A stretch of DNA of 15,698 nt, taken from positions 1 through 15,698 of the forward strand of contig JBDRBK010000066.1 of assembly GCA_043822705.1 (NCBI GenBank), read 5' to 3'. The stretch's first letter is position 1, and each line of letters starts with the position of its first letter. Origin of the DNA: Fidelibacterota bacterium. Its GTDB lineage: Bacteria > Fidelibacterota > Marinisomatia > Marinisomatales > TCS56. The notes under the pieces were generated by a model. That model searched no databases. It was not told where the DNA came from and saw only the letters and a list, made by a program, of their open reading frames with translations. Of the stretch, positions 11,422-15,698 are shown piece by piece. A program made the position numbers and the translations under genes.

Positions 11422-12354
11422 TTGATGAATAACTACGACCTGTGTATTTTATGGAACTGGGAATTCGACGCTGATTTTGTCGGGTTGCTCGATGCTGCCT
11501 GTTCGCGGCAGGATTTGTCGGTCCTGCAGGTCACGCCGGATAATCTTGCCGAGCGGCTGAATCAACTTAAGGCCGGCTGGATCGATTTCCGTGTGTTCCT
11601 TGACCGTGCCTCCGAGGATGATGACCGGTTTATGCCCTTCGTGAATTGGGCGAATCAGTCTGGTCGCTACTATATCAACCGCTATGAACTGGCTCGGCGC
11701 AGTTGTGACAAGGCAGCGCTGCATTACGATCTGATCCGTGCCGGTCTGCATACGCCCTATTCGTTTATCCTGCCGCCCTATGCGGAACAGCCGGAAATCA
11801 GTGGAATTGACCGGGACAAGTTAGGGGAACGATTCATCTTCAAACCGGTCCGGGGGAGCGGTGGCGAAGGCGTGGTCATGGACCTGGCCGAACTCAGCCA
11901 GGTTATGGCCCTGCGGAAAAAAGACCAGTCCCGCCGCCACCTGTTGCAGGCCTGTATCACGCCGCGCATGTTAGATAATCGGCCGGCCTGGTTTCGCGTG
12001 CTGTATTGCCGGGGCAAAGTCTATCCCTGCTGGTGGCATACCGAAACCCACCGGTATTCAATCGTTACGCCTGACGTGACCGATAGATTCGGTCTTGAAC
12101 AATTGTCTCAGGTGACCGCCACCCTGGCCGCTGTCAGCGGATTGGATATATTCTCGACCGAGATCGCCTTCACCGACGATGACCTGTTTGTAGTCGTCGA
12201 TTATGTCAACGATCAACCCGACCTGCGGCGGCAGTCGGCGGCGGTGGACGGCGTCCCGGATGAAATTGTCCTGGATATCGTGGAACGTCTGGCACAGCTG
12301 GTCGCGGAAAATTGCCGCACGCAGCCGGCCAGGCCGGGCACAGCACCCGGATAG
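11422..12354 (+). CDS. ATP-grasp fold protein (RimK-like), substrate unknown
   Basis: CDKAALH, LHTPYS, FIFKPVRGSGGEGVV, LLQACI, WFRVLY and STEIA...VVDYVND motifs. Start is TTG 11422 or ATG 11425. Confidence 0.75.
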   Translation: MMNNYDLCILWNWEFDADFVGLLDAACSRQDLSVLQVTPDNLAERLNQLKAGWIDFRVFLDRASEDDDRFMPFVNWANQSGRYYINRYELARRSCDKAALHYDLIRAGLHTPYSFILPPYAEQPEISGIDRDKLGERFIFKPVRGSGGEGVVMDLAELSQVMALRKKDQSRRHLLQACITPRMLDNRPAWFRVLYCRGKVYPCWWHTETHRYSIVTPDVTDRFGLEQLSQVTATLAAVSGLDIFSTEIAFTDDDLFVVVDYVNDQPDLRRQSAAVDGVPDEIVLDIVERLAQLVAENCRTQPARPGTAPG

Positions 12355-12450
12355 GCCTGCTCATCGGCAGGTATCGGAGGTTGTCCCTGCCAAGTTGGAC
12401 TGGCTGTTTTGAGTCTATTGGGACTGCCTGGCTGCAGCGGTTATGTGGTA

Positions 12451-13113
12451 TTAATCGGTTCCCGGCGATTTGAAAAGGCCAAGGATGGTCAGACCCTCTT
12501 TCAGGAAATTCGGCATTTCATCCGGGGTGACACGTTTGGAAAGCCGGTAAAATAGCAGCGTGTCCGCTTTGCCTTCGGTGCAAAGTTTGGGATGTTTTTC
12601 GAAATAATCCAATTTGTCGGTCCCAAACAATTCGCGGATAGCTTCCTCATCGACACCCCGCAGCAGGTACTGCCGCGAGAATTCCGGGTGGGAATCGAAA
12701 TCGATATCCTGATAGCCGAAGGCCCCGACTATACGGTGGATCAGATTTTCCGGCCGCAGCGCAAATTCGGGTAAATCCAACCGGCTGGTCCGGAACAGCA
12801 GCACCGTCTGCCGGAAGGTATGGGATTCTTTTCCACCGCCGATGGTGTAGCGGTAATCCATCAGGTACAGATCGACCCCCTGAATCGACCCCTGCAGCAC
12901 GTTGGCGATTTTACGGGAATGTCCCTGGGTGAACAGGTGGAAATGATTGGTCAGGGAATACAGGCGCTCATCGGCTTTATGGCCGAATGTCAGTTTCAGG
13001 GATTCGGCCAGGGCGGTCAGGGCTGCGGTGCGCTGCTTTTCGTAGCGCCAAATCAGGTAAATGATTACCGCCACTGCGGCGATGACTGCGGTGATTATGA
13101 TTGGGAGGGGCAT
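12451..13113 (-). CDS. Membrane-anchored hypothetical protein
   Basis: 220-aa ORF with an N-terminal TM helix followed by a soluble domain (DIDFDSHPEFSRQYLLRGVDEEAIRELF). Host-like GC. Confidence 0.8.
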   Translation of the reverse strand: MPLPIIITAVIAAVAVIIYLIWRYEKQRTAALTALAESLKLTFGHKADERLYSLTNHFHLFTQGHSRKIANVLQGSIQGVDLYLMDYRYTIGGGKESHTFRQTVLLFRTSRLDLPEFALRPENLIHRIVGAFGYQDIDFDSHPEFSRQYLLRGVDEEAIRELFGTDKLDYFEKHPKLCTEGKADTLLFYRLSKRVTPDEMPNFLKEGLTILGLFKSPGTD

Positions 13114-13114
13114 G

Positions 13115-13178
13115 GGCTAACATTTGAGTTGACCTGCTTTATGTGAAGCAAAAAGTCAGGTTGAGCAATTTGTTGGAG
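13115..13178 (-). mobile_element. attC-type integron recombination site (64 bp)
   Basis: Minus strand: R'' CTCCAAC, 5 nt, L'' GCTCAACC, TGAC TTTTTG CTTCA CATAAA GCA, L' GGTCAAC, 6 nt, R' GTTAGCC. Spacing is canonical, with extrahelical G (13163) and T (13156) on the + strand. It begins 4 nt after the stop of an AT-rich ORF. Confidence 0.82.
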
Positions 13179-13555
13179 GTCGTTATTGCGTCCAATCATT
13201 CCAACCACATTTTATGCACTCTATTGCATAATATAGCTCATCTCTTTTACTATCTTCTAGTGTACCCTTTTTTAATTCATTTGAGCCACATTTAGGACAT
13301 GCTTTATATGGTAATGGATCACCACTTTTCATATCTTCATAATCAATGGTTTGTTTATTAATTAAATCATTTAAATCCTCTATGGTTAGATTATCAGCTT
13401 TTGAAGATAAAATTGTATTTTTTAGCTCTTCAGACATTTTTGAAAATATTTTTTCTTGATCATTCGTTGATCTATGATAATAAATATGGGTGAAAAACCA
13501 TGAGACAATGCCACCTGCAATAAAGAGTAATGTTTCCATTCTATTATTTCCCCAA
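13121..13555 (-). mobile_element. Solitary integron-type gene cassette (about 435 bp)
   Basis: Starts at G|TTGGGG (13556-13550) 10 nt before ATG 13539, carries one AT-rich ORF and ends in attC at G|TTAGCC. No integrase in the window. Confidence 0.72.
13183..13539 (-). CDS. Hypothetical cassette protein: N-terminal TM helix and C-terminal Zn ribbon
   Basis: 118 aa from METLLFIAGGIVSWFFTHIYY, with CPKC...CIKC near the C-terminus. Very low GC (14/60 in 13321-13380). Start at 13539 is preferred over 13605 because it lies inside the cassette boundary. Confidence 0.75.
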   Translation of the reverse strand: METLLFIAGGIVSWFFTHIYYHRSTNDQEKIFSKMSEELKNTILSSKADNLTIEDLNDLINKQTIDYEDMKSGDPLPYKACPKCGSNELKKGTLEDSKRDELYYAIECIKCGWNDWTQ

Positions 13556-13697
13556 CTACTATTTATGAAGAATTCCTCATGCCACAAAGTAACAACCCAT
13601 TCCATCCGGAAGCAAACGTGAAAAATGCCAGCGGTGCAATTCTACATCCGGTAGTGAATAAGTTTAATGCGGTTATGATGGTGAGTGCAAGCGTTTT

Positions 13698-13813
13698 CAG
13701 GGGGCAGGGATCAGAGGACTGGGGGCAGGGCCAATAGATAGGAACTGTTGTGCTGAGCGCGTGGTTGCCATATCATCACCGCTGCTCCCCGGCACCTGAT
13801 CCCCTGACTCCTG
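13698..13813. repeat. Imperfect inverted repeat built from degenerate heptamers
   Basis: Left arm (+): CAGGGGG CAGGGAT CAGAGGA CTGGGGG CAGGGCC (13698-13732). Right arm (-): CAGGAGT CAGGGGAT CAGGTGC CGGGGAG CAG (13813-13782). Confidence 0.65.
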
Positions 13814-13831
13814 CGCTTGCTGCTCATAGTT

Positions 13832-13858
13832 AAAAAAAGGGCCCGGAAAACCGAGCCC
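13832..13858 (-). terminator. Rho-independent terminator of the thiolase/DUF35 operon
   Basis: Minus strand GGGCTCGG-TTTT-CCGGGCCC-TTTTTTT, about 33 nt after the stop at 13892. Confidence 0.88.
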
Positions 13859-13891
13859 CATTATATCTTGGCTAATTCTCGGATGTGAAAA

Positions 13892-14482
13892 TTACCCGAA
13901 CGTAAAGCCCTCCGGCAGAGCGGAAGCCGATGTTCCCGCCGGCACCCAGGCCAGGTCCAGAATCGTGTAGGACGGTTTGACGGTCTGGAAAATCGGCACG
14001 ACCTGCATTCCGATTTTCGGTTCGCCCACCGCCAGGTTACCCATCAGGATCGTGCAGACACCTGCGAATTCCACGTTCACGAAGCGGATCGGTATTGGCA
14101 GTGTATTAAAGGCGCCGGTCCGTTCGGTGATCATGAAAGTGTGCACTCTGGCGCCGGTGCGGGCGACTTCGGTCATGTCCACAATCGTATTCTTCGCCAG
14201 GCAGTCGGGGCAGTGAATCCGGAACGGCACGAAAATCGAACCGTGGGCGGGACAGGTAGGATTATCACAACGGGTGCCCAGTAGTTTGCCCTGACCGAGT
14301 CCCTCGAAGAAAGGGGCTTCACCACCGTAGCTGTGGATATGGACGATGTCCCGGGGATTGGTTACACCCAGAAATTTGCCATGCTCATCCCGGATCGGTG
14401 TGGAGGGATTGATGTAATGGAATTTACCCGACGGTTTGTATTTGCCGTTTACGACTTTTACGGTTCCGCGCTGGTCGCTCAT
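13892..14482 (-). CDS. Zn-ribbon/OB-fold protein (DUF35/ChsH2-like), thiolase partner
   Basis: FFEGLGQGKLLGTRCDNPTC...FVPFRIHCPDC Zn ribbon, then an OB-fold (VHTF...KIGMQVVPIF). ATGA overlap with the thiolase stop. Confidence 0.88.
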   Translation of the reverse strand: MSDQRGTVKVVNGKYKPSGKFHYINPSTPIRDEHGKFLGVTNPRDIVHIHSYGGEAPFFEGLGQGKLLGTRCDNPTCPAHGSIFVPFRIHCPDCLAKNTIVDMTEVARTGARVHTFMITERTGAFNTLPIPIRFVNVEFAGVCTILMGNLAVGEPKIGMQVVPIFQTVKPSYTILDLAWVPAGTSASALPEGFTFG

Positions 14483-15698
14483 TTGCCGCTCCTTTCCAGT
14501 TGATGATCAGGATGGATCAGAATCGTAGCTGTCACATGACTGCCGACACCGGCATGACTGATCGCCAGACCACGTTTGGCGTCTTTTACCTGCAAATCGG
14601 TCCAGTCCGCCGGTTTGGTGCGACCGAAGCGATCCCATTTTTTCTGATCACCGTGCATCTCGGCCCAGCGGCCCCAGATCTGCTGGCCGACTTCGATCGC
14701 CTGCATGATGCCGGTGGCACCGACAGCGTGCATGCAGCCAATCAGTCCGCCGGAAAGATTGGCGGGTAATTTACCGGGTCGGCCGGTTCTGGGATTGATA
14801 TGGTAGCAGTCGCCCGATTCGACGTAGGTGCGGCCTTCGCCGTAGGGCCGGATGCCGATATCCTCGTAGGTCTGGATATCGCTGATGGTGAAGGCGTCGT
14901 GCAGTTCCACCAGATCGAGGTCGTTGGTGGGATCGACGATGCCGGCCATCCGGTAGCCATAGTAGGCGGCCATCCGGGCGGCCAGGAAGCCGGTGAAACC
15001 GGGGTAGCGGTCGCCGCCGGGGAAGCGTTTCCCCAGATCCTTGTACTGGTCCGGCGTCTCGTTCGGCAGTAACGGGATCGCCATGTCACGGCGGTCGGCC
15101 ACTCGCAACGTGTGACTGCCGGCCGATACGTAGACCAGTAGGGGATTGTCGGTCAGCTCGTAGGCGGTTTTTTCATCGCAGAGGATGGCGCAGGCGGCGC
15201 CGACGCTCATCAGGCAGCAGTCCAGCGCCCGCAGCGGATAGGCCACCACCGGGGAATTGAGCACATCTTCCACGGTGATTTTCATCGGTCCCTGGGCGTG
15301 GGGATTCATTCGGGCGTAGCCGCGGTTCTTGACGGCGATTTCGGCCATGGTCTTACGGAATGATTCTTCTTCCTTGCCGAATACCTGCCAGTATTTCTGG
15401 GCCATCACCGCATAATAGCCGGTGTAGATATGACCCAGGGGCGTTTCCCAGTCCTTGTCGGCAGCGCAGGATATGTAATTGTTACCCTCGTCGGTGGGCA
15501 CCTCGTCCATGCGCTCCCAGCCCATGGCCAGCACGCAGTCGGAATAGCCCGAGGCCACCGTCTTGAATGCTTCCCACAGCGTCGAGCCGCCGGTGGCGCC
15601 GCCGGTCTTGATGCCGACGTTGCCCAGCGGATCGAGCCCCAGCCGGTCATGGATCACCGATTCGCCCAGCAACTGGTCGCCGAAGTGGTCGGCAAAAT
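14479..15698 (-). CDS. Thiolase-superfamily protein (SCP2/archaeal-like, HDAF type); 5' end outside the window
   Basis: The frame is open to the window edge (FADHFGDQLLGE...). Motifs IAVKN...NPHAQ, VLNSPVVAYPLRALDCC, VELHDAFTI and NLSGGLIGCMHAVGATG. Confidence 0.9.
   Translation of the reverse strand, partial: FADHFGDQLLGESVIHDRLGLDPLGNVGIKTGGATGGSTLWEAFKTVASGYSDCVLAMGWERMDEVPTDEGNNYISCAADKDWETPLGHIYTGYYAVMAQKYWQVFGKEEESFRKTMAEIAVKNRGYARMNPHAQGPMKITVEDVLNSPVVAYPLRALDCCLMSVGAACAILCDEKTAYELTDNPLLVYVSAGSHTLRVADRRDMAIPLLPNETPDQYKDLGKRFPGGDRYPGFTGFLAARMAAYYGYRMAGIVDPTNDLDLVELHDAFTISDIQTYEDIGIRPYGEGRTYVESGDCYHINPRTGRPGKLPANLSGGLIGCMHAVGATGIMQAIEVGQQIWGRWAEMHGDQKKWDRFGRTKPADWTDLQVKDAKRGLAISHAGVGSHVTATILIHPDHQLERSGK

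Follow-up and report, generated by a model that had tools for sequence, protein, structure and literature searches.

The recombination of gene cassettes through the bottom strand of attC, with its crossover between G and TT, is well established (Loot et al., bioRxiv 10.1101/2022.09.11.507474). Cassettes that lack a neighbouring integrase gene have been described under several names. A SALIN at an attG site has one ORF and one attC, no intI nearby and a G|TT crossover, and may be expressed from a neighbouring promoter. According to that preprint, attG sites have only GWT in common, carry CRGM at +6 to +9 in IntI1 hotspots and are unlike attI; a left-side hotspot motif is placed in its supplementary figure. 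CALINs are likewise cassettes with no neighbouring intI, at least two attC sites being required, and their proposed origins include intI loss and the action of a distant integrase (Cury et al., 10.1101/030866). According to the same text, IntegronFinder seeks attI and promoter solely as exact class 1-3 sequences. Since attI is unknown for most integrons, annotation tools miss sites of the kind described below. One attI per integron is the rule stated in PMC3607928. Displaced fragments of attI are found in Delta-attI-type gene cassettes, where they remain recombinogenic (PMC12901181). SALINs, attG insertion, CALINs and intI loss are thus already in the published record (10.1101/2022.09.11.507474; 10.1101/030866; Ghaly et al., PMC9668308; a Xanthomonas preprint). 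No multi-copy integrase-less attI platform was found in titles and the beginnings of abstracts, in a coverage that most subscription journals fall outside.

The window analysed here (15,698 nucleotides) is the entire contig C66 of a Fidelibacterota assembly, G000, of 3.34 Mb in 218 contigs (93% complete, 6% contaminated); G001 and so on denote genomes of relatives, and Cn a contig. The parts of the locus are a promoter module, an attI core, the G|TT crossover, an ORF and an attC, in that order on the - strand. The locus is probably an integrase-less promoter-attI platform with one cassette, captured by IntI in trans. A preliminary description had read it as a solitary cassette inserted off-target into housekeeping DNA. 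With a single attC candidate on the 15.7-kb contig it is formally a SALIN, and the claim that no integrase lies nearby agrees with the whole assembly, where no intI was found; it is less solitary than was thought, since four more cores and at least two integrase-less arrays (C60 and C93) are present in G000. The same description held the cassette to be possibly still excisable, which would require an IntI, and G000 yielded none.

Compared with a SALIN at attG, the window shares the single ORF and attC, the lack of intI and the crossover. It differs in having at its left junction a conserved core from the attI of a known IntI clade, along with its own promoter-like module and many sister copies. 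Loot et al. define an isolated cassette as one with no other att site nearby; here an attI core lies at 13574-13554. GWT is present at the crossover as in attG insertions, but the target resembles attI and has CCAT where CRGM would be expected. Like a CALIN, the locus is a cassette without a neighbouring intI; unlike a CALIN it has only one attC and keeps a recognisable attI and a promoter-like module. The attI/Pc platform of a sedentary chromosomal integron is similar in its promoter-like element, a core ending in G|TTRRRY and a correctly oriented cassette, and the window core is nearly the same as that beside clade-B intI genes (see below) in relatives. In contrast to such an integron, the window has no adjacent intI, its platform occurs in many copies per genome and has an internal deletion, and its module is unseen beside intact intI. 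In Delta-attI-type cassettes the displaced attI fragment takes the place of attC, at the 3' end of the resistance cassettes of class 1 and class 2 arrays (PMC12901181), whereas the attI piece of the window is upstream, chromosomal and accompanied by a promoter-like module.

The gene cassette (13121..13555, - strand) measures 435 bp between its two G|TT points, with a GC content of 31% compared to 54% in the downstream gene. Its ORF has 29% GC and a GC3 of 0.19, while the genome median is 0.65. The drop in GC noted earlier across the ORF is therefore confirmed between the G|TT points, with its left change-point at 13119 (support 13111-13211). The other change-point lies at 13574 (support 13566-13700); the AT-rich tract therefore continues past the cassette boundary, the G|TT of position 13556, and enters the attI core.

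The attC occupies 64 bp (13115..13178, - strand), with R'' at 13178-13172, R' at 13121-13115 and the crossover at 13121|13120. R'' (CTCCAAC) starts 4 nt past the ORF stop codon (13185-13183, - strand) and is followed by a 5-nt spacer, L'', a short central stem-loop, L', a 6-nt spacer and R' (GTTAGCC); the coordinates and the two spacings first proposed for the site hold. Both outer boxes fit the RYYYAAC/GTTRRRY consensus, the first base deviating. The canonical hairpin folds from the bottom strand at -8.8 kcal/mol and the top strand reaches -7.8, a difference of 1 kcal/mol. The z-scores are -1.98 (bottom) and -1.91 (top), and 9 of 200 shuffles are equally good, which is weak evidence if taken alone. 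The stronger evidence is comparative. A two-arm profile, trained on 15 sites from arrays at other loci (one of them of the same attC family), ranks the site second of 627 candidates in G000, after a training site, and scores it at 28.9 bits, the best value across three genome shuffles being 26.3. A first genome-wide attC scan of G000 had been overly strict and overlooked the C60 and C93 arrays. Four genomes among 200 others of the order also have the attC family. In one of them it belongs to an array next to an intact intI, a site originally picked up by a generic scan. In the consensus fold of five family members the columns of G13163 and T13156 (numbered on the + strand, which is the bottom strand) are unpaired, as the preliminary description had it for these extrahelical bases, and five of the 20 pairs have changes on both sides. 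The profile rank, the family members in arrays and this consensus support the attC as genuine, and with it the initial view of a true integron cassette with a canonical site.

That the hairpin arose by chance, or is a terminator behind a horizontally acquired gene, can practically be dismissed. The fold z-score near -2 and the small strand difference would suit such a hairpin, but the rank among candidates, the occurrence of the family in arrays and the conserved extrahelical bases do not, and no terminator was called in the attC region. A search with Rfam over 12300-13900 returned no significant family.

The cassette has GTT at both of its junctions, and the R box at the left one is GTTGGGG. 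The pairing probability of AAC with GTT is 0.77-0.83 in the present attC and 0.99 in the circular form. When the attC is completed with the cassette 5' end GTTGGGG (13556-13550), the fold improves by 3.3 kcal/mol to -12.1 kcal/mol and R-box pairing rises from about 0.8 to 0.99, in agreement with the suggestion that the circular cassette opened at G|TT.

The ORF of the cassette (13183..13539, - strand) encodes 118 amino acids with a hydrophobic N-terminal helix, a helical middle and a C-terminal four-cysteine zinc ribbon. A longer, 140-aa ORF from 13605 was rejected because the homologues begin at the Met of 13539. The protein has 173 homologues, in which the four cysteines are invariant; none occurs in 300 other genomes of the phylum. 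Seven full-length genomic homologues come from several bacterial phyla and one archaeon; three are in attC context, and for the remaining four this context is not clear. In the structure model (pLDDT 94.5) the N-terminal helix is long and the C-terminus forms a zinc ribbon. No family in Pfam, PHROGs, PADLOC or NCBIfam was above cut-off for the ORF. Foldseek gave nothing at E<=0.001 for the model, the best matches being TFIIS-type zinc ribbons, and the best VIA-align hit (Z 5.0) is on the first helix; a word-index protein search returned the protein itself only, and Atlas scores were <0.9. The product is most likely a membrane-anchored zinc-ribbon protein. A role against phages or in stress is a guess from the neighbours at other platform copies, and a doubtful one.

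At the left junction an attI core of 18 bp ends at the crossover G|TT, 13556|13555 (13554..13574 with the crossover, - strand). Of the 21 bases that precede the crossover at 13556 (a length set after the match was seen), 16 are shared with the attI next to the intact intI of G010:C50 and of G025:C128, and the window core is as near to these attI as true attI sites are to each other. This comparison took in 24 of 31 intI loci, the other seven having no readable attI upstream. Few sites in G000 resemble attI so closely: 7 of 93,434 GTT sites reach 16/21, or 4 of 5,624 at matched GC. The integrases of G010:C50 and G025:C128 fall into one clade (clade B, support 1.0) with those of G051:C251, where a similar core was seen by eye, and of G005:C63, which is of the same family as G000. 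Positions 13574-13551 are 24/24 identical in another genus (G004:C18), there before a cytosine methyltransferase gene. On sequence grounds, the left junction is an attI-type core.

Five copies of the core are present in G000, the window's and those on C13, C40, C82 and C99; each of the latter four precedes a GTTRRR-like crossover (T for G in C99) and a foreign-looking gene. A core model trained without G000 places these five as its top sites. Insertion at an anonymous GWT site (attG), or survival as the lone remnant of a decayed array, is consequently very improbable. The single attC, the missing intI and the host-like flanking genes would fit it, and SALINs are common enough (3,400 in RefSeq genomes; 10.1101/2022.09.11.507474). 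Against it, the left flank consists of an attI core of which four sister copies exist, attG sites are described as unlike attI, and the 24/24 match before a different gene in another genus largely refutes an anonymous target. The idea of an off-target event in housekeeping DNA has thus given way to one of a conserved module and attI core belonging to a family of dispersed platforms.

In a platform loaded in trans, the integrase would be a clade-B IntI, encoded elsewhere in the ancestor or by incoming DNA. It would join the folded bottom-strand attC of the circular cassette to the attI core at G|TT, the R' half of the cassette (TTGGGG) passing to the left junction and the resident TTAGCC completing the present attC. 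We infer this trans step, and with it the activity of the promoter described next.

Upstream of the core is a 5' module (13586..13698, - strand) made up of a putative promoter and about 70 conserved bases, with an imperfect CCGG...CCGG inverted repeat. The promoter-like element, TTGCAC - 18 nt - TAAACT (13661..13690, - strand), was not called by a strict sigma-70 scan. The pattern TTGNNN-17/18 nt-TANANT is found in all 20 aligned copies of the module, the boxes near-invariant and the spacer variable. By this shape the element is a putative Pc and would, like a Pc, drive transcription of an ORF that has no promoter of its own; no module was found beside intact intI among the loci compared, so it is the shape that argues for the role.

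The module is characteristic of one family of bacteria. An HMM built from the copies of G004 alone detects that of the window (E 6.9e-5). There are 16 copies in G000 and 11 in G004 (training copies included in both), 6 in G008, 2 each in G001, G002 and G006, and 1 in G005; outside the family just two weak matches were obtained in 72 genomes of other families. In G000 the copies are mostly located before AT-rich ORFs, ThsB-like TIR and HNH proteins among them. Only 4 of 17 module matches in G000 are followed by the core and 13 are without it; the module may therefore be a promoter-carrying repeat in its own right. The coreless matches and the altered C99 copy also form a decay series. In full-length copies the end of the module is the reverse complement of the first intI codons. 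Relative to these, about 110 bp are missing from the window platform in the stretch that separates module from core, an internal deletion that may have removed the upstream IntI-binding repeats. Modules are only moderately alike (median 55%, the window module at most 56%), while the core is 18/18 identical between genera. A core that stayed unchanged while the modules diverged points to selection on the core.

Two other identities for the module were rejected. As a structured RNA it showed no consensus pairs with RNAalifold, and as decayed intI coding sequence it had no match to intact platforms. Modules also occur in other arrangements. In G008:C263 (L188, 2378-6962), five stand in tandem, each before a different gene. 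In G008, G005 and G002 the same DUF4440 gene follows a short module whose core has decayed, and these copies look like a vertically inherited, domesticated cassette.

Integrase-less cores are not confined to G000; 25 were gathered in 11 genomes, hand-picked from pattern matches. A core pattern with three mismatches gave 43 matches and its reversed control 19, so such matches mean little by themselves. Matches that were doubtful or whose surroundings did not resemble a cassette were left out (G053:C84, G047:C9, G047:C1, G002:C4, G029:C1, G035:C6, G009:C2, G038:C2 and G008:C322), as were the short-form cores found behind modules in G008, G005 and G002, whose crossover has decayed. Conservation in the 25 is high up to G|TT and falls after the crossover, which is GTT plus a purine in 22 of them, a count that is partly circular because the search patterns contained GTT. 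No IntI match was detected in the regions fetched around these cores. Their first genes are mutually unrelated, with one weak shared match. Different cassettes join the crossover in different copies of the platform, as distinct from alleles of one locus. Judged by these alignments, the window locus is one of a family of dispersed integrase-less platforms. The exact core pattern was found in two stretches of metagenome contigs, both without the module and one plainly unrelated, in no viral contig (0 matches), and plasmids gave no match.

Several of these copies have features of their own. At G000:C99:16344 the core is followed by a 187-aa ORF and an attC-like site at about 16950-17030, in which AAC and GTT are both altered; this degenerate attC, with the T for G at the crossover, has the appearance of a frozen cassette. 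Contig G001:C18 (L196, 1-245) stops exactly at the crossover G of a full-length platform, as would be seen if cassettes at this position varied within the population. Between the core and the first ORF of G010:C10 (L129), the first 30 bases contain a perfect palindrome and a GC-rich hairpin right at the crossover, which may represent a small insertion or a cassette lacking an ORF. The C40 platform and its cassette are closely followed by a fluoride riboswitch (55 bits; L009, 2916-2976, - strand) in front of a crcB-like gene; Rfam over the five platform loci gave no significant family.

Alleles of the window locus itself were sought in relatives and in reads. Among 30 relatives no orthologous locus with both flanks was found. 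Two low-depth sequencing runs provide the read data for the locus, and their short contigs match 13378-13579, 13598-13748 and 13840-13990 exactly. These runs showed no joint, no empty site and no circle; none of their contigs spans a junction by 31 letters, and they give no indication for or against excision. Neither relatives nor runs contained an empty or differently loaded allele of exactly this locus.

The gene downstream of the cassette (12451..13113, - strand; 220 aa) has no assigned function and is of host-like composition, with a GC3 of 0.66 (genome median 0.65). It was found in 7 out of 101 genomes of the order, a patchy distribution, and its homologues are named from several phyla. 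It is either a resident behind the platform or an older cassette with a decayed attC. Just past its stop, at 12447-12432 (- strand), ACATAAC and the GCTGCAGCC after it look like an attC left half whose spacer has been shortened; a matching right half was not detected, and the likeness is an impression. The orthologue in G001 shares TAGCCCATG at its start and is accompanied by neither cassette nor module, so TTAGCC may be host DNA. This would agree with promoter, core and cassette having left another locus as a unit, through recombination of attC with a secondary site upstream, and having entered a secondary G|TT just before the 220-aa gene, the core being a passenger. Insertion of attC at attG and excision outside the insertion point have been shown by Loot et al. 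(10.1101/2022.09.11.507474), and such movement would account for both the spread and the tandem occurrence of platforms. It is nonetheless quite unlikely: the left edge of the module has no conserved crossover or target duplication, the bases at +6 to +9 to the right of the attC crossover are CCAT and lack the CRGM hotspot motif of IntI1, and the first genes of the 25 sister copies are unrelated but for one weak match. Unrelated first genes suggest that each copy was loaded or reloaded separately.

On the other side, a terminator-like hairpin (13838..13859, - strand) closes the thiolase-DUF35 genes and separates them from the platform. These are a thiolase-like gene, cut by the contig end, and its DUF35 partner (13892-15672, - strand). 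The hairpin is also present behind a second DUF35 copy on C161, which is 84% identical and diverges past the terminator; that copy may be a paralogue or contamination.

Integrase genes are numerous among the relatives: 31 out of 151 genomes belonging to the order, and 5 of 8 in the family, score above the TIGR02249 cut-off. Nothing in G000 reaches it, the two best matches being XerD and a XerC-like protein, and no intI was found in an assembly of 93% completeness in 218 contigs; an intI may reside on unbinned DNA of the source. One IntI query had a weak tblastn match (29%, E 4e-4) at G000:C81:7237-7956 that the family searches did not report. For another class of integron, the loss in G000 can be traced. 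In G004 an intI follows smc, co-oriented with its array, in about 1,060 bp; on C60 about 40 bp remain between two alignable flanks. This appears as a clean deletion of intI (G000:C60:81640-82170) that kept the upstream region, a second type of attI and an array of about 8 kb. On contig C93 an intI of this same type survives as its final 30 codons, ahead of another array, which brings the integrase-less arrays of G000 to at least two. Pieces of this second platform type are also seen at C93, C17:3077 and C140:7477.

The window could in the same way be a relic in place, an integron that lost its intI by deletion, with the scattered copies as independent dead remnants devoid of trans activity. 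The losses at C60 and C93 are precedents, and truncated intI starts persist at several orphan cores (about 25 codons in G025:C17, 10 in G002:C34 and 6 in G010:C6). This reading is unlikely, however. The family copies share the module in place of the intI body, for which one loss followed by multiplication is a better fit than many losses. Perfect conservation of the core and a shared cassette also indicate recent use of integrase-less cores: 818 bp, from the G of GTT to the end of R', are 100% identical between the orphan core G002:C34 and G004:C57, where the cassette is in first position in an intact integron, the flanks differing on both sides. Identity between two genomes assembled from metagenomes could be an assembly join. 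In a family of platforms loaded in trans, intI would have been lost behind its first codons, with the truncated starts as intermediates, and the platform then multiplied, spreading cassette capture across many chromosomal sites; copies would decay later, losing core or attC, with the gene domesticated behind the promoter.

The cassette of the window is ordinary in itself, and it is the orphan attI family that deserves follow-up. Integrase-less single cassettes are currently read as off-target insertions at GWT, and here such a cassette sits at a real attI. The origin of SALINs and small CALINs is an open question, for which the left junctions of SALINs can be compared with attI sites of the same lineage. 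Defined attI/IntI pairs are now at hand for an assay. It is conceivable, though somewhat short of probable, that these bacteria possess a distributed integron, an intI-free promoter-attI pad at 5-16 chromosomal sites per genome that is maintained by selection and loaded in trans. If so, each captured cassette would be first in line and expressed at once, as against waiting in one array. The module may then be the unit that spreads, and decayed copies a route to permanent chromosomal genes. If the pads are loaded in trans, many captured genes could be expressed at the same time, and loss of intI would freeze the set.
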